Source: a candidate division LCP-89 bacterium B3_LCP | GTDB lineage: Bacteria; Electryoneota; B3-LCP | DNA length: 64,000 bases | Direction: 5' to 3' | NCBI GenBank assembly: GCA_005223185.1 | Contig: NJBN01000005.1 | Coordinates: 29,091 to 93,090 of the forward strand | In this document: positions 50,037-57,939 of the stretch, piece by piece | Layout: each line of letters starts with the position of its first letter | Position numbering within the stretch: position 1 is the stretch's first letter | Translations under genes and position numbers: made by a program | The notes under the pieces: generated by a model | Databases searched by the model: none | What the model saw: the letters and a program-made list of their open reading frames with translations, nothing else | Told to the model about the DNA's origin: nothing

Positions 50037-50735
50037 TTACCGGGTAATGTACTTAATGTGCCAGAAGCATTCGCCTATGTGAATATCCATTTTGTCCGTC
50101 CATGGAGCGAAAATATGGCGGAGCGCTTCTGCGTCATAATAGTTTTTCAGGATTTTATGCTCAGTTCCGTCCAGAAGATGGCGCAATTTGTAACTGTTTT
50201 CGTCACTTTTCTCTGCTATCAATTCGCCACCAATTCCTGGTATATAGACATTATCCACCATGAATACCGGTGAATTCGCTGTCAATCTGTCGTGAAAACC
50301 GCTTAAGAATTGCTTGATCTTGACTTTCGGAACGTGCGAAAACCAGAAAGCTGCCAGACCTGCGTCGAACTTTTCCGGGATCGCATCCAACTGATAGGCA
50401 TCTACCTGCCGGAATTCGATCACGGATCGGGGAAAGCCTTTTTGTCGTGCTTCTTTCAGCATTTCAGGAGAAGTGTCAGTGGCAAGGATTTTATCCGCGA
50501 TTTTTACCAATTCTGCAGTCCAGAAACCGCTTCCGCAGGCGATTTCCAGCACGCGACGCTCTCTGAATATCTCCTTGATATTGTCAGCGATATCCTCCTG
50601 TTCTCGCTGACGAACAGGATCATCACGATGGAATTTATCTTCATAATCACAAGCGTGGCGGTTGTAATATTCCCGCACAGCGAGTTCATTAACGGGAAGG
50701 TTTGGGGAGTTTTCTCTATTCTTTGTGGAGTTCAT
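50037..50735 (-). CDS. Class I SAM-dependent methyltransferase, substrate unknown
   Basis: VLEIACGSGFWT motif I, FDAGLAAFWFSHVP. Start set at ATG 50735. Confidence 0.8.
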   Translation of the reverse strand: MNSTKNRENSPNLPVNELAVREYYNRHACDYEDKFHRDDPVRQREQEDIADNIKEIFRERRVLEIACGSGFWTAELVKIADKILATDTSPEMLKEARQKGFPRSVIEFRQVDAYQLDAIPEKFDAGLAAFWFSHVPKVKIKQFLSGFHDRLTANSPVFMVDNVYIPGIGGELIAEKSDENSYKLRHLLDGTEHKILKNYYDAEALRHIFAPWTDKMDIHIGECFWHIKYITR

Positions 50736-50749
50736 ATAATGATCTTTTT

Positions 50750-51217
50750 CTAATTCGCACCCTTCCCTGTCCCCCACTCGATAACTTCAATACGTACTCG
50801 CGCAGTTCCAGCAACCACCATATCGATAACCTGGGCTGCGCCTAAAGAAAGATCGATGATGCGCCCTTTTACGAAGGGACCGCGGTCATTGATGCGAACG
50901 TTTAAGCTTTTTCCGTTATCTAAGTTTTTCACCTTTACCACAGTGCCCAGCGGTAGAGTTTTATGTGCGGCAGAAATCCCGTTCATATCGAATATTTCAC
51001 CTGATGAAGTGGGTCTTCCGTGAAATTTATCGGCGTAATAACTGGCGATACCGGTTTCGACATACCTGCTTCCAGGTTCTACAACCGGAGACACGGGACC
51101 ACTGCGATAGCGGGGCATGGACGTGCAACCCCAGAAGGAAAGGGTTACGAATAAAACGATGAGACAAGCTGGAAAAGTTGTGACAAAAGTTCGTTTAGAA
51201 TATCTGATAAAATTCAT
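50750..51217 (-). CDS. rlpA: RlpA septal-ring lytic transglycosylase lipoprotein (DPBB domain only)
   Basis: Lipobox [38 protein letters not shown]. Confidence 0.92.
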
Positions 51218-51236: not shown

Positions 51237-52151
51237 TTATATGTCCAACGTGCCCACCAAATCCTGGACTCCGCTGATATCATGGCTAATACAGAACTCT
51301 TCGATCCCACTTAGTACCTCCAGCGGAGCTTGAGGATCGACAAAATTGGCAGTACCGATCTGAACGGCGTTGGCTCCGGTGATGATGAATTCAAGCGCAT
51401 CTGAAGCTTTAGAAATTCCTCCAATACCGATTATGGGGATGGAGACCGCTCTTCTAACTTCCAGCACTTTAGCCAGCGCTACCGGCTTAATAGGCGGTCC
51501 GGAATAACCTCCTGTTACGGTGGCAAGTTGAGGACGACGCGTTTCGATATCTACTGACATGCCAACCAGAGTGTTAATCAGAGACACAGCATCGGCGCCG
51601 GAGTCCGCGCAGACTCGAGCTATCTCAGCGATGGAAGTGACGTTCGGTGTAAGTTTAGGTATTACTGGTCTTTCGGTGCGCTGGCGTATTCCGCTTATAA
51701 TTTCTTCCGTTACAGCAGGGTTAGACCCAAAAGCCATCCCCTCGTCCTTCACATTGGGGCAGGAGATGTTTATTTCATAAGCATCTATGCCCGTTTGATC
51801 ATCCAGTTTTTCTATCAGTTCCCAGTACTCTTCTACATTCGATCCGGCGATGTTTACGATTATTGCTGTATCGATCTCCCGCAAGGCGGGGAGTTTGTCA
51901 GTGATGAAAGCATCGGAACCGACATTAGCCAGACCGATGGAGTTGAGCATACCTCCAGATGTCTCCCAGATGCGAGGCGGAGGATTACCCGGGCGGGGCT
52001 GCGGCGTTATGGTCTTGGTGATAATGCCACCTAACCTGGATACGTCAATCAGTTCTGCATATTCAGTGCCGTATCCGAAAGTACCGGAAGCAACTAAAAC
52101 GGGATTCTTCAGATCCAGCTTCCCAAGCTTGACTGACAGATCGACTTTCAT
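51237..52151 (-). CDS. pyrD: Dihydroorotate dehydrogenase, catalytic subunit (class 1B)
   Basis: KNPVLVASGTFG, NSIGLAN, EINISCPN, KLTPNV, INTL, GGYSGP. ATG at 52151 overlaps the upstream stop (ATGA). Confidence 0.96.
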   Translation of the reverse strand: MKVDLSVKLGKLDLKNPVLVASGTFGYGTEYAELIDVSRLGGIITKTITPQPRPGNPPPRIWETSGGMLNSIGLANVGSDAFITDKLPALREIDTAIIVNIAGSNVEEYWELIEKLDDQTGIDAYEINISCPNVKDEGMAFGSNPAVTEEIISGIRQRTERPVIPKLTPNVTSIAEIARVCADSGADAVSLINTLVGMSVDIETRRPQLATVTGGYSGPPIKPVALAKVLEVRRAVSIPIIGIGGISKASDALEFIITGANAVQIGTANFVDPQAPLEVLSGIEEFCISHDISGVQDLVGTLDI

Positions 52152-53065
52152 GCGCCTATTGCCTCCCTTCGGCGGAGGTAACGGTTCAAATATTGACCGC
52201 AATTCGATCCTATCCTGTCCTCTTCCGGTTGCCCGAGACTCAAGATTACTTCATACCCGACACGTTTAAGTTCCACAACGATCTCACCCGAACCATCGCC
52301 ACTATGGGGATTAATCCGGGTTTGGAGGTTGTTCTTTTGGCTGTTCTGGGTAGGATTAAGCGGAGTTAGTTTTACTAGAAAGACGTCTGTATCGAAGAAT
52401 TCAAGGAGCACGTCCGCATCAATTGGGAATCCTTCAGCCATGGCGAAATTCAAGGCTATTTTCCTATCACCTGGTGAAAAGAAGCTCTCCCCTATTTCCG
52501 CTGCTTGATGGAAATCCATCAGGGGATAATTTATCAATTCATGACGCAATTGCTGGTCTGTAGTGTGCAGTGAAAACTGCAGCTGAAAGCGACCACCAGA
52601 ATAGAGTTCATTCTTTATAGTTACCAACTCATCGAAAAAACTGTGGCGTTTTGCAGGTAAAACCGATGAAATACAGGGCATTAGTCCGGGAGCGTGATAC
52701 TTTTTTGGTAGAGTTCTCAGAACGTTCAGAACCGCATCGTTTAGCGCTGGTTCACCCATGCGTGCAAACTGGATCTTGAACTTGGGAACAGGCACGCTGC
52801 GATCTGGGAAACGCGCTGTCACCAGAGCATCGATCTGCGCGAAGATTTCATCTTCACTCAAACGACCATGATAATCACCCCCTGCATCACACATAAGGCA
52901 GCGCACAGGACAACCGTTCAGAGTGGAGACGATCAGCACCCATTTTTCCTCGCGAGGAATTGGGGGTTGAAGGGATTCGACGAATTCCACTACTGAACCA
53001 GTTTCCGTTTCACCCAGATACAACATCGCCAGATCTTCACGACCGTGATGTTCTATTATGTTCAT
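52148..53065 (-). CDS. RlmN/Cfr-like radical SAM protein (short, function unknown)
   Basis: C52-C56-C59 (GCPVRCLMC), RMGEPALN, LQFSLH, C-terminal GSNCGQ; 305 aa. Confidence 0.82.
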   Translation of the reverse strand: MNIIEHHGREDLAMLYLGETETGSVVEFVESLQPPIPREEKWVLIVSTLNGCPVRCLMCDAGGDYHGRLSEDEIFAQIDALVTARFPDRSVPVPKFKIQFARMGEPALNDAVLNVLRTLPKKYHAPGLMPCISSVLPAKRHSFFDELVTIKNELYSGGRFQLQFSLHTTDQQLRHELINYPLMDFHQAAEIGESFFSPGDRKIALNFAMAEGFPIDADVLLEFFDTDVFLVKLTPLNPTQNSQKNNLQTRINPHSGDGSGEIVVELKRVGYEVILSLGQPEEDRIGSNCGQYLNRYLRRREAIGA

Positions 53066-53946
53066 TATTGATTATTTTCCTGTAGAAATTGCGTGATTTC
53101 CATGGCACAACGCAGCCCATCTCCGACGGCAATGCCCACCTGACGGCAACTGCCGTTAACCACGTCCCCGATGAAATGGAACTGCGGAATTTCAGGCTTG
53201 TTCTTCAGTTCCGGTGATAAAAAAGCTAACTCAGGATGACGCCCAACAGCGCAAAGCACTAAATCTGCACAGATTGGTGAAGGCGTTCCGCCTCTAAAAT
53301 TGACCACGACCTGTGATTTTTCTCTGGTTATAGCAACTGGTTCTGCGTTGTAGATACGCTTAATATCTGACATTGATAGTACTCGTTCATCAAGAATCCG
53401 AAGGCAACACGGACTTGCGGATCTCATGGCGATGATCACGTCCATCTTGCGCCATGCCAAAGATAGAGCATAGTCGAAAGCCGCGTCTCCGCCTCCAATG
53501 ATGCAGGCAGTGCCAGCCAAACTTTCGGGAAGGTTCCTCAGTTCGGTAAAGACCTTCTTCCCAGACAAATCCTCAACGCCGTGTATATCCAGTTGATTGG
53601 GTGTCGTACCAGCAGCTACTATAACAGTACGTGCAATAACTTCTTTATTATTAATTGAAGCAATGAAATGATCGTCCATCCGGTGCAGATCATCTGCATG
53701 AGCATGCTGAACTTGTATGTCAAGCTCTTCTAAATGTTCCTGAAATAACTTCGCCAGATCAAGCCCAGAGATGCCCCGGGCAAAACCCGGGTAGTTTTCA
53801 ACCCAACCGGCGTTTAATAAAGCTCCTCCTATACGATCCTTTTCGACTATGAATGGATCAAACCCGGCTCTCTTCAGTTGCAGCGCAGCCGCTATTCCCG
53901 CAGGTCCAGCGCCAATTATAAGAACCTCAACTTCTTGTGATTGCAT
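53065..53946 (-). CDS. TrxB-fold FAD/NAD(P)H oxidoreductase lacking the CxxC disulfide
   Basis: IIGAGPAG, ENYPG, IIGGGDAA, FIGDV...RQVGIAVGDG; KVFTELRNL replaces the usual VSACATCD. Confidence 0.85.
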   Translation of the reverse strand: MQSQEVEVLIIGAGPAGIAAALQLKRAGFDPFIVEKDRIGGALLNAGWVENYPGFARGISGLDLAKLFQEHLEELDIQVQHAHADDLHRMDDHFIASINNKEVIARTVIVAAGTTPNQLDIHGVEDLSGKKVFTELRNLPESLAGTACIIGGGDAAFDYALSLAWRKMDVIIAMRSASPCCLRILDERVLSMSDIKRIYNAEPVAITREKSQVVVNFRGGTPSPICADLVLCAVGRHPELAFLSPELKNKPEIPQFHFIGDVVNGSCRQVGIAVGDGLRCAMEITQFLQENNQ

Positions 53947-53962
53947 TAAATAATTGCTGCTT

Positions 53963-54736
53963 TCAGGTAATTAAATCCCAATCAACGTCGGCTCCGTTGA
54001 AGACTGGGCCATCCGTGCAGACGAGCTTATATCCTCCACCAACACTCTGCGCACACCCCTGGCAAACCCCAATTCCGCAAGCCATTCTACTTTCAAGTGA
54101 TACTTGATATAATATGCTGTTATGTGCGCATAATTCATCTGTTTTTCTCATCATGGGTACAGGACCACAGGTATAAACTGTATGAATCTCTGATGGATTT
54201 TCACCGAGGTGTTTTTCCAGTAGATCAGTAACCAAACCTTTAATCCCGAAGCTGCCGTCATCTGTGCAGTAGGAAATATTGCGTTCGGGAATAACCGCAT
54301 CCGGCAAGGGGAATTTTTCATGTGATTGTCCACCCAAAAAGAATGGCACTTTTTTTCCCTGTTTGACTAACTCATCCTGTAGCATCAGTAAGGGCACTAC
54401 ACCGATTCCACCGCCTACTAAAACCACAGCATCCGCATTTTGGTAGGTGAAACCTTTCCCCAAAGGCCCAATTACGTCGCATATTTGACCTGTTTGCAAA
54501 TTGGACAATAACTCAGTACCCTTGCCGACAATTTGTATAATGAGGGAAATAAGGCCGTCCCCTGCGCCTGCAATACTAAACGGTCTGCGTAGAAGGATCC
54601 CAGCACCATCTACCTTCAGATGTACAAATTGACCGGGCTTGGCCAACTCAGCAATTTGTGGTAGTTCTAAGACGAGGGAAAATATAGTCGGACGATACCT
54701 TTCAACCTGGCGGACGACGCCTTTTTCCTGGATCAT
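53963..54736 (-). CDS. pyrK: Dihydroorotate dehydrogenase electron-transfer subunit
   Basis: PGQFV, LRRPFSI, GPLGKGF, GGGIGVVP, CGPVPMM, RMACGIGVCQGC...VCTDGPVF (2Fe-2S). Confidence 0.95.
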   Translation of the reverse strand: MIQEKGVVRQVERYRPTIFSLVLELPQIAELAKPGQFVHLKVDGAGILLRRPFSIAGAGDGLISLIIQIVGKGTELLSNLQTGQICDVIGPLGKGFTYQNADAVVLVGGGIGVVPLLMLQDELVKQGKKVPFFLGGQSHEKFPLPDAVIPERNISYCTDDGSFGIKGLVTDLLEKHLGENPSEIHTVYTCGPVPMMRKTDELCAHNSILYQVSLESRMACGIGVCQGCAQSVGGGYKLVCTDGPVFNGADVDWDLIT

Positions 54737-57143: not shown

Positions 57144-57908
57144 TTAGTTCTTAGATTTTGTTTCGATCTGCTTGATTTTGTTCACCAAATCAGGCAGCAC
57201 CTGCGCTGAAGAATCCGTGAAGACTGCATCTGCTAATGATGTGATGGGCGTCCTATCTGGATTAATTTCAACCAATAAAGCGCCGCTATCCTTGGCTACA
57301 ACGGGCAATGCCGCAGCAGGATGAACCACTGCTGACGTTCCTATTGAGAGAAACAGGGTAGCCTGTTGCGAATGAAGAAAAGCATCTTCTATTGTCACAT
57401 GATTTAAACCTTCTCCGAACCAGACTACGTCCGGGCGTATCTGTCCCTGACAGTTCAAACAAAGGGGCGGTAACTTATCGAAGTCCAGGGTATCATCCGG
57501 ATAGCGTTCAGAACATGAATTGCACCTGTTCAGGAAGATGTTTCCATGCAGTTCAATAGGATTTTTATGACCGGCGCGGCGGTGCAGGCCATCCACGTTC
57601 TGGGTTATTAAGATAAAACGATCCTTTAGCACTTTTTCCAATTCCACCAGCGCGTCATGCCCGGCGTTTGGGTTCGATTGTGCTATTATCTGTCTCCTGT
57701 ACAGATACCATTCCCAAACCATTTGAGGATTACTGGCGAAAGCCTGCGGTGTGGCTAATTCTTCCGGTCTGTGTTGCCGCCACATTCCTCCTTCCCCACG
57801 GAAGGTCGGCACGCCTGATTCTGCTGATATACCGGCACCAGTTAAGGCAACTACCTTCCTGAGATGGTCAGCGGAGATATCAAACGAATCTATTTCAGTT
57901 AAATCCAT
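57144..57908 (-). CDS. cobB: NAD-dependent protein deacylase (class III sirtuin)
   Basis: GAGISAESGVPTFRG, TQNVDGLH, ELHG, CxxC/CxxC zinc site, RPDVVWFGE, GTS; the WYLYRR (YxxR) motif suggests desuccinylase activity. Start set at ATG 57908. Confidence 0.93.
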   Translation of the reverse strand: MDLTEIDSFDISADHLRKVVALTGAGISAESGVPTFRGEGGMWRQHRPEELATPQAFASNPQMVWEWYLYRRQIIAQSNPNAGHDALVELEKVLKDRFILITQNVDGLHRRAGHKNPIELHGNIFLNRCNSCSERYPDDTLDFDKLPPLCLNCQGQIRPDVVWFGEGLNHVTIEDAFLHSQQATLFLSIGTSAVVHPAAALPVVAKDSGALLVEINPDRTPITSLADAVFTDSSAQVLPDLVNKIKQIETKSKN

Positions 57909-57910
57909 AC

Positions 57911-57939
57911 TTGACAAACGATGTTTTTTTTCATATATT
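57911..57939 (+). promoter_or_regulatory. Sigma70 promoter of rpsT
   Basis: TTGACA-N17-TATATT, 27 nt upstream of the ATG. Confidence 0.8.

Follow-up and report, generated by a model that had tools for sequence, protein, structure and literature searches.

What does a radical SAM enzyme do when it resembles the RNA methylase RlmN, keeps the cysteine that carries the methyl group, but lacks the cysteine that resolves the covalent intermediate? We met this question in a 64-kb stretch of DNA (hereafter the window) from a contig of the candidate division LCP-89 bacterium B3_LCP. The initial annotation of an ORF in this window reported that it matches RlmN at the methyl-carrying cysteine (C355 in E. 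coli), at MGEP and at an upstream Glu, that an isoleucine replaces the resolving cysteine (C118), and that the protein is shorter at the N-terminus. It proposed a different chemistry: reductive resolution by the adjacent flavoprotein, a stable cross-link, or a non-RNA substrate. The locus comprises the following features.

53963..54736, minus strand: pyrK, electron-transfer subunit of dihydroorotate dehydrogenase B, first gene of the local four-gene block
53065..53946, minus strand: thioredoxin-reductase-like FAD/NAD(P)H flavoprotein without the CxxC disulfide, 293 aa
52148..53065, minus strand: RlmN/Cfr-like radical SAM protein, 305 aa, the subject of this analysis
52931..52933, minus strand: Ile45, the position that aligns with RlmN C118 (the resolving or base cysteine)
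52889..52912, minus strand: C52-x3-C56-x2-C59, the predicted ligands of the radical SAM [4Fe-4S] cluster
52748..52759, minus strand: MGEP, a SAM-binding motif shared with RlmN
52193..52210, minus strand: GSNCGQ loop with C289, which aligns with the methyl-carrying C355 of RlmN
51237..52151, minus strand: pyrD, catalytic subunit of dihydroorotate dehydrogenase B, whose probable ATG at 52151 overlaps the radical SAM stop codon (ATGA)

We first tested if the register with RlmN was correct, since a cysteine elsewhere at the C118 position would have overturned the observation. IVSTLNGCPVRCLMC lies at 52889-52933, which gives I45, C52, C56 and C59. Single-sequence searches were too weak to establish the relationship: phmmer against the PDB gave only RlmN at E 1.6, and tblastn with RlmN did not find the ORF at all. 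We thus built a profile of 26 family sequences and aligned it with E. coli RlmN (hhalign probability 95.5%, E 1.4e-8). IPREEKWVLIVSTLNGC aligns with IPEDDRATLCVSSQVGC, so I45 pairs with C118, and IGSNCGQ aligns with IDAACGQ, so C289 pairs with C355. The aligned stretch starts at RlmN residue 109 and weaker matches reach residue 77. Hence, the part of RlmN before about residue 70, its RNA-binding N-terminal domain, has no counterpart. In the predicted structure (AF2, pLDDT 91.8), residues 1-31 form three beta strands. The upstream Glu is most likely E30 (FVES against RlmN VETV, E105), although this was read off the sequences and lies outside the aligned stretch. The observation made in the initial annotation is correct.

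This is not chance or a private mutation. Among cysteines, only C52, C56, C59 and C289 are invariant in 26 relatives that are 53-70% identical. Across 81 family loci, C289 is present in 100% and position 45, which is I/V/L/M in the family, is never Cys. In 59 representatives at 50% identity of the wider clade, the position seven residues before the cluster motif (-7) is never Cys and the C-terminal Cys is kept in nearly all of them. By contrast, all solved relatives (RlmN, Cfr 9p0p and 6fz6) have Cys at -7. We also searched for a substitute cysteine. In cis, C131 is Cys in 22% of the family and C28 in 30%, and both were rejected. In the flavoprotein, Cys181 is present in 79% only and two orthologues have no cysteine at all, so this was rejected as a general solution.

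Is the protein then an RlmN? It is not an RlmN orthologue: TIGR00048 scores 22.2 bits against a cut-off of 290, TIGR04432 scores 15.6 against 550, and the best model, NF011034, scores 34.6 against 422. RlmN and Cfr nevertheless remain the closest folds. Foldseek with the predicted structure placed 6fz6, RlmN (5hr6, 3rfa) and Cfr (9p0p) at E 9e-15 to 5e-9 and TM 0.62-0.70, while the next fold (NifB) was at 3e-5. The family profile also hit Cfr, 6fz6 and RlmN in the PDB. The family is large, with more than 6000 clusters at 90% identity, in uncultured anaerobic bacteria and archaea.

We then turned to the neighbouring genes. A context look-up for the window protein itself returned nothing, and no public sequencing run was found to hold the locus. 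The flavoprotein gene lies directly upstream on the same strand in 75 of 81 loci, mostly with a 4-nt or 1-nt overlap (TAATG in the window). In the reverse test, starting from the flavoprotein, 69 of 71 metagenome loci carry the radical SAM gene directly downstream. Natural flavoprotein-radical SAM fusions exist (proteins P0124 and P0146 of our set), and the P0124 cluster has 7 members on contigs of up to 96 kb. An isochorismatase-like cysteine hydrolase usually precedes the pair: it lies directly upstream in about 48 of 81 and 52 of 67 loci, and is fused to the C-terminus of the radical SAM domain in proteins P0154, P0157, P0168, P0184 and P0193. Its Asp-Lys-Cys triad is conserved. However, the hydrolase is absent from 25-35% of operons, including this one, and tblastn found none in the whole window. 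No other neighbour is conserved.

The flavoprotein matches Pyr_redox_2 and Pyr_redox_3, and thioredoxin reductases are its best PDB hits (E 6e-25). It has the FAD and NAD(P)H glycine motifs (GAGPAG and GGGDAAFDYAL, with invariant columns in our alignment A2), yet TIGR01292 scores only 133.1 bits against a cut-off of 343.45. The redox-active CxxC (CATC) of thioredoxin reductases is missing: no CxxC occurs before GGGDAA in the window sequence, and no Cys column is conserved above 79%. Whatever this protein delivers must therefore come from the flavin.

In the lineage of the window, the pair sits between pyrK and pyrD. PyrD is recovered by NF005574 (410 bits against a cut-off of 269). PyrK has the DHODB_Fe-S_bind domain, although no equivalog model reaches its cut-off, the nearest being NF000799 with 175 bits against 314. 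The same gene order occurs in loci L006, L009 and L010, and the L006 orthologue of pyrD starts at the equivalent overlap.

Several searches for clues to the substrate gave nothing. We found no Rfam hit in 23 loci with long upstream spacers, in the window, or upstream of a fusion with the QueT transporter, so riboswitches offer no ligand clue. Because Sir2, NAD kinase, NUDIX and NAMPT appear near some loci, we looked for a link with NAD, but NAD kinase is present in 2 of 81 loci and Sir2 in 3 independent contexts, which are too few to count. The C-terminal GYxY tail does not go with the presence of the hydrolase. PADLOC gave no defence-system match. Literature searches for the three-protein module or for RlmN homologues lacking C118 found nothing.

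Taken together, our favoured, still tentative, explanation is that the ORF is one half of a conserved two-component enzyme. The radical SAM protein would be a divergent member of the RlmN/Cfr structural clade working with the flavoprotein encoded directly upstream, and in most genomes the hydrolase would also be part of the module. In this view it is not an rRNA or tRNA methylase, and most likely acts on a small polar metabolite. The cluster at C52/C56/C59 would cleave SAM to give the 5'-deoxyadenosyl radical. C289, on the same C-terminal loop as RlmN C355, would act as the S-methyl carrier or radical relay. As the family has no second cysteine to act as base and disulfide partner, the two electrons per turnover that RlmN draws from its C118/C355 pair would be supplied by the flavoprotein, either by re-reducing the cluster and the C289 thiyl radical, or by hydride transfer to an exocyclic methylene intermediate, as in ThyX. 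The hydrolase would work on an amide group of the same metabolite, before or after the radical step. In the lineage of the window, the pair would have been inserted into the pyrK-pyrD operon and be translationally coupled to it, with no hydrolase gene nearby.

It is important to distinguish the elements of this explanation. The homology and predicted fold, the invariant cysteines, the lack of orthology with RlmN, the partnership with the flavoprotein, the linkage and fusions of the hydrolase, and the absence of CxxC in the flavoprotein are results of the analysis. The mechanism, including the activity itself and any methylation of C289, is inferred. The electron bookkeeping rests on analogy with the RlmN mechanism as summarised in PMC12871812. 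The small-molecule substrate is inferred from the missing N-terminal domain, the link to the hydrolase, and the many invariant polar residues in motifs such as FKIQFARMGEP, FQLQFSLHTTD and RKITLNFA. The interpretation in the initial annotation is thus supported in part. The flavoprotein is a real and nearly obligate partner, and a non-RNA substrate is favoured by the absence of the RNA-binding domain, by the linked and sometimes fused hydrolase, and by the acidic character of the proteins (median pI 5.7). Yet, nothing in our data shows that the flavin resolves a covalent adduct or that C289 is methylated, and C289 could be an H-atom donor rather than a methyl carrier. In addition, relatives in phages and mobile elements (PHROG 24834 and the clades ending in TCGN or CCGQ) also lack the -7 Cys and keep the C-terminal Cys, while the five places examined show no flavoprotein neighbour. 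The loss of the resolving cysteine is therefore not tied to the flavoprotein: the one-cysteine chemistry may need no flavin, and the flavoprotein could be no more than a dedicated cluster reductase.

A bolder version of this explanation is not excluded, but we consider it unlikely. C289 would carry a SAM-derived methylene onto an sp2 carbon of a small N-heterocyclic metabolite, and the covalent enzyme-substrate adduct would be resolved by the reduced FAD of the partner, by hydride transfer to an exocyclic methylene as in ThyX or by reduction of a C289 thiyl radical. This would be the first class-A-type radical SAM methylase with a non-RNA substrate and a flavin in place of the resolving cysteine. 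The placement between pyrK and pyrD would fit a pyrimidine substrate.

The alternative that survives best, although we find it less likely than the favoured explanation and on balance unlikely, is that the flavoprotein is only a dedicated NAD(P)H-driven reductase for the [4Fe-4S] cluster. The radical SAM protein would then be a radical lyase, isomerase or similar enzyme rather than a methylase, with C289 as H-atom donor, like the cysteine of spore photoproduct lyase or of radical SAM epimerases. The relatives without a flavoprotein are consistent with this, as is the conservation of the C-terminal Cys across a wide clade found in very different contexts: phage contigs, a NAMPT-NUDIX-NADK cluster, and a QueT transporter fusion. 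Context look-ups for clade B relatives, one of them for a homologue found by searching with the QueT-fused domain, landed in phage-like DNA. The QueT-radical SAM-MtnN fusions (proteins P0233 and P0267) suggest a role in salvage of a queuosine precursor, and the known radical SAM enzyme of that pathway, QueL, is a lyase, although its membership of this clade is unproven and no preQ1 riboswitch lies upstream of P0233. TrxR-type flavoproteins without CxxC are known as ferredoxin-NADP reductases (PDB hits 3lzw, 5ygq and 3ab1). On the other hand, the exact xxCGQ loop and MGEP context of the methyl-carrying Cys of RlmN are retained, and near-exclusive pairing and fusion is generally unusual for a mere cluster reductase.

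It is more doubtful that the missing cysteine is supplied in trans by the invariant Cys (THLCCE) of the isochorismatase-like protein, with the flavoprotein reducing the resulting intermolecular disulfide through its partners' cysteines in place of its own. The three proteins are linked by gene order and fusions, the hydrolase domain is fused directly after the C289 tail, the flavoprotein is closest to genuine thioredoxin reductases but lacks their disulfide, and the hydrolase has a second Cys adjacent to the invariant one in 95% of sequences. However, the hydrolase is missing from many operons, including this one, and its complete Asp-Lys-Cys triad points to ordinary amide hydrolysis.

It is very unlikely that the protein is an ordinary, merely divergent RlmN/Cfr-type RNA adenine methyltransferase. 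JGI names many members '23S rRNA (adenine2503-C2)-methyltransferase', and RlmN and Cfr are the best fold and profile matches. Yet scores are 12-35 bits against cut-offs of 290-633, the N-terminal domain and C118 are absent, the proteins are acidic, and the pairing with a flavoprotein, and often a small-molecule-type hydrolase, is nearly obligate. The family is also common in archaea, whereas a 2010 survey found the Cfr/RlmN family essentially absent there (PMC2836569). Least likely of all is a single-turnover or suicide protein that ends cross-linked to its substrate, the remaining suggestion of the initial annotation: the RlmN C118A mutant does trap a covalent RNA adduct (titles of PDB 5hr6 and 5hr7) and the family lacks this cysteine, but more than 6000 clusters sharing 50-70% identity across bacteria and archaea, with a dedicated NAD(P)H flavoprotein, argue for a catalytic, recycled enzyme.

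RlmN and Cfr, which methylate adenine C2 or C8 in rRNA or tRNA using two SAM per turnover, are the only characterised class A radical SAM methylases, and their two-cysteine ping-pong mechanism is a textbook case. Here a very large family, spread across many phyla, keeps the methyl-carrying cysteine, has lost the second cysteine and the RNA-binding domain, and has gained an almost exclusive NAD(P)H flavoprotein and usually a cysteine hydrolase. This suggests that the scaffold has been reused for something else. Its chemistry would either reveal a new way to resolve the covalent intermediate or show that the conserved cysteine has a different role, and would assign a function to thousands of genes now labelled 'rlmN' or 'radical SAM protein' in anaerobic bacteria, archaea and phages.

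How does this system compare with known ones? QueL, the queuine lyase of Clostridioides difficile (CD1684), is a radical SAM enzyme encoded next to a QueT/QrtT transporter (queK-qrtT-queL behind a preQ1 riboswitch). Distant relatives of the window protein are fused to QueT, any relationship with QueL being unproven, and the window locus has no queuosine genes. The flavoprotein shares with low-molecular-weight thioredoxin reductases and TrxR-type ferredoxin-NADP reductases the two-Rossmann FAD/NAD(P)H architecture and the GGLLxNAxxVENYPGF and GxGDxAFDYAL motifs, but it lacks CxxC and occurs essentially only next to this radical SAM family. The flavin-dependent thymidylate synthase ThyX and the tRNA methylase TrmFO provide a mechanistic analogy only: a reduced flavin supplies the hydride that turns a transferred methylene into a methyl, the role proposed here for the partner. 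They have no sequence or fold relation with it, take the carbon from methylene-tetrahydrofolate and use no radical SAM chemistry. The closest family in any library searched is PHROG 24834 (E 3e-30), with related phage or mobile-element proteins, for example in Bacteroides phage Versailles. These share the short form, the missing -7 Cys and the retained C-terminal Cys, but have a different N-terminal segment (GDYGK...), a TCGN or CCGQ ending, and no flavoprotein or hydrolase neighbour in the places examined. Cfr (9p0p) is the best profile hit in the PDB (E 2e-8), aligned end to end including the ACGQ loop, but this resistance rRNA C8 methylase has Cys at -7 (C105, in FCISSQCGC) and an N-terminal domain. 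Finally, RlmN (E. coli; PDB 3rfa, 5hr7) shares the core fold (TM about 0.7 with the predicted structure), the CX3CX2C and MGEP motifs, the SLH and NP strands and the C-terminal xxCGQ loop. The window protein and its family differ from it by an identity of only about 18-24%, Ile in place of C118, no RNA-binding N-terminal domain, scores far below the family cut-offs, pairing with a flavoprotein and a hydrolase, occurrence in archaea, and a substrate that is probably not RNA.

We first verified the residues on which the initial annotation was based, which are where it placed them. The features of the gene and of its immediate neighbours are as follows.

52148-53065, minus strand: ORF of the radical SAM protein, 305 aa
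52889-52933, within this ORF: IVSTLNGCPVRCLMC, which gives I45, C52, C56 and C59
52748-52759, within this ORF: MGEP
52193-52210, within this ORF: GSNCGQ, which gives C289
53065-53946, minus strand: TrxR-like flavoprotein
53963-54736, minus strand: pyrK

Library models recognise little of this protein. Pfam Radical_SAM scores 15 bits, below its threshold, and the RlmN and Cfr NCBIfam models score 12-35 bits against cut-offs of 290-633. A single-sequence search of the PDB gives only RlmN, at E 1.6. Hence, we aligned 26 relatives that are 53-70% identical (alignment A1) and compared the resulting profile with E. coli RlmN, taken from NC_000913. The profile comparison (hhalign) gives 95.5% probability and E 1.4e-8 over family residues 36-297 and RlmN residues 109-363. 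In this alignment I45 falls on C118, C289 on C355, and MGEP on MGEP. An AlphaFold2 model built on A1 is confident (pLDDT 91.8, pTM 0.90), and a Foldseek search of the PDB with it returns a Sphaerobacter RlmN (6fz6), E. coli RlmN and Cfr at E 9e-15 to 5e-9 and TM 0.62-0.70, while the next fold, NifB, is at 3e-5. The A1 profile also hits Cfr, 6fz6 and RlmN in the PDB, and all three have Cys at the -7 position, where the family consensus is hydrophobic. The N-terminal domain of RlmN has no counterpart. The observation made in the initial annotation, that this RlmN-like protein keeps the methyl-carrier Cys but lacks the resolving one and is shorter at the N-terminus, is thus confirmed.

We then tested if this is a property of the family. 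The homology search found 6496 clusters at 90% identity, and a profile search of 50%-identity representatives found 2524 proteins at E <= 1e-3 and 166 at E <= 1e-30. In A1 the only invariant cysteines are C52, C56, C59 and C289. Across 81 genomic loci C289 is present in 100%, position 45 is never Cys, and no other column exceeds 30% Cys. In 59 representatives of the wider clade the -7 position is never Cys, and the C-terminal Cys-Gly is almost always kept. Members come from uncultured anaerobes of many phyla, including LCP-89, Zixibacteria, Eisenbacteria, Cloacimonadota, Chloroflexota and Elusimicrobia, and archaeal members come from Thermoplasmata, Methanobacteriota and Heimdallarchaeota. A 2010 survey of the Cfr/RlmN family found it essentially absent from archaea (PMC2836569). 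A 325-aa member of the wider one-cysteine clade (P0197) is recorded from the cultured acetogen Moorella thermoacetica (OIQ59782.1, annotated as RlmN) and could serve as an experimental entry point.

In the window the genes run pyrK, flavoprotein, radical SAM gene and pyrD, all on the minus strand. The flavoprotein stop overlaps the radical SAM start (TAATG), and the radical SAM stop overlaps the probable pyrD start (ATGA). The same four-gene order, and the wider synteny from rpsT to comEC, recurs in locus L006, and the four-gene order also recurs in loci L009 and L010, which are the closest relatives. A 246-aa class I SAM methyltransferase ORF of the window (50037-50777, minus strand) overlaps the end of the rlpA-like gene (50750-51217) by 28 nt, and L006 has an FKBP gene at this place instead. 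Of the 56 ORFs of 150 aa or more in the window (1-64000), 52 are on the minus strand and the other four all lie inside longer minus-strand ORFs. The cumulative GC skew falls steadily, and there are no tRNA genes and no Rfam family hits in the whole 64 kb.

To assess if the neighbourhood is conserved, we retrieved 80 loci from one genome per species, called their ORFs, and analysed them together with seven loci retrieved earlier and the window. The flavoprotein is directly upstream on the same strand in 75 of 81 loci, mostly with a 4-nt or 1-nt overlap. An isochorismatase-like cysteine hydrolase precedes it in about 48 loci, and no other gene family is conserved nearby. The reciprocal test started from the flavoprotein in an independent metagenome collection. 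It gave the radical SAM gene directly downstream in 69 of 71 loci and the hydrolase directly upstream in 52 of 67, and none of these loci has pyrK or pyrD. Natural fusions exist in both directions: proteins P0124 and P0146 join the flavoprotein to the radical SAM domain, while P0154, P0157, P0168, P0184 and P0193 join the radical SAM domain to the hydrolase. The pair is therefore an obligate two-component unit, with the hydrolase as a frequent third member, and the pyr operon setting is specific to this lineage.

The flavoprotein is most similar to true thioredoxin reductases (E 6e-25 in the PDB) and keeps both dinucleotide motifs. However, it has no CxxC, and TIGR01292 scores 133 bits against a cut-off of 343. 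Its most conserved cysteine is present in 79% of orthologues, and two orthologues have no cysteine at all. Hence, whatever it passes to the radical SAM protein must come from the flavin and not from a thiol. It also matches phrog_6397 at 3e-32, a PHROG labelled 'ribonucleotide reductase large subunit', but the match is to a TrxR-like region and the label looks misleading. The hydrolase keeps the Asp-Lys-Cys triad with an invariant THLCCE motif, and resembles YecD, biuret hydrolase and RutB only weakly. No copy is present in the 64-kb window.

The wider relatives occur in very different settings. PHROG 24834, of unknown function, matches the window protein at 3e-30, far better than any RlmN model. 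Related short forms occur in phage-like contigs and in Bacteroides phage Versailles (locus L099:4986-5993), a crAss-like phage, and Vibrio and Pectobacterium phages. The short genes of PHROG 24834 (L099 and loci L089-L094 and L100-L101) occur in cultured phages of Bacteroides, Vibrio, Aeromonas and Pectobacterium, and on very large phage-like contigs of up to 636 kb; all lack the -7 Cys and keep the C-terminal Cys. Another phage-like contig (L095:2523-7619; also L096 and L097) carries a relative from the clade ending in TCGN (P0275) inside a block of NUDIX, NAMPT, radical SAM, PTH2, NUDIX and NAD kinase genes, next to a T4-type RNA ligase. This looks like an NAD salvage module with an unexplained radical SAM gene. 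Finally, an 814-aa triple fusion in a Bacilli MAG (P0233, L098:5001-7445; P0267 is similar) joins a QueT-family transporter domain, an RlmN-like radical SAM domain and an MTA/SAH nucleosidase. It may be a one-protein pathway for salvage of a queuosine precursor. The fusion hints at a possible relationship to the queuine lyase QueL, but no preQ1 riboswitch precedes the fusion gene. The related short forms also lack the -7 Cys and keep the C-terminal Cys, yet the places examined show no flavoprotein neighbour.

Other searches for clues to the function gave little. No riboswitch was found in 23 loci or in the window, a search for defence systems gave no match, no sequencing runs hold the locus, and literature searches found nothing on the family. 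NAD-related neighbours are too rare to count. A Sir2-family deacetylase gene lies within a few genes of the radical SAM module in three unrelated contexts (window 57144-57917, minus strand; L008:9191-10009; L121:2765-3277), slightly more often than we would expect by chance, but far from conclusive. The family is acidic, with a median pI of 5.7. This is only weak evidence against RNA binding, since E. coli RlmN has a pI of 6.6.

In RlmN, SAM first methylates C355, and a second SAM gives the 5'-deoxyadenosyl radical, which abstracts H from the S-methyl group. The methylene radical adds to adenine C2, and C118 resolves the adduct (PMC12871812). Judged from its sequence, the window family keeps everything needed for the first steps and lacks the last player. 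Our preferred reading, which is tentative, is that the flavoprotein supplies the two electrons per turnover that RlmN obtains from its cysteine pair. It could do this by reducing the cluster and a C289 thiyl radical, or by hydride transfer to an exocyclic methylene. We also read the substrate as a small polar metabolite on which the hydrolase acts too. Whereas the alignment register, the cysteine pattern and the gene pairing are established by the analysis, the role of C289, the electron supply by the flavoprotein and the nature of the substrate are inferred. The main rival is that the flavoprotein merely reduces the cluster and that C289 is an H-atom donor in a non-methylating reaction, and it gains weight from the flavoprotein-free relatives. 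A third possibility is that the hydrolase cysteine acts in trans and the flavoprotein reduces the resulting disulfide, which fits the fusions but not the operons that lack a hydrolase. An ordinary RNA methylase and a dead-end cross-link are both unlikely.

The initial annotation had proposed a different chemistry, such as reductive resolution by the adjacent flavoprotein, a stable cross-link, or a non-RNA substrate. Our results support this interpretation only in part: the partner flavoprotein and a non-RNA substrate have support, while flavin resolution is unproven. The family deserves biochemical study. Its predicted fold is that already known from RlmN and Cfr, of which it forms a large and uncharacterised branch, and it differs from them in having one cysteine instead of the pair and an exclusive flavoprotein.
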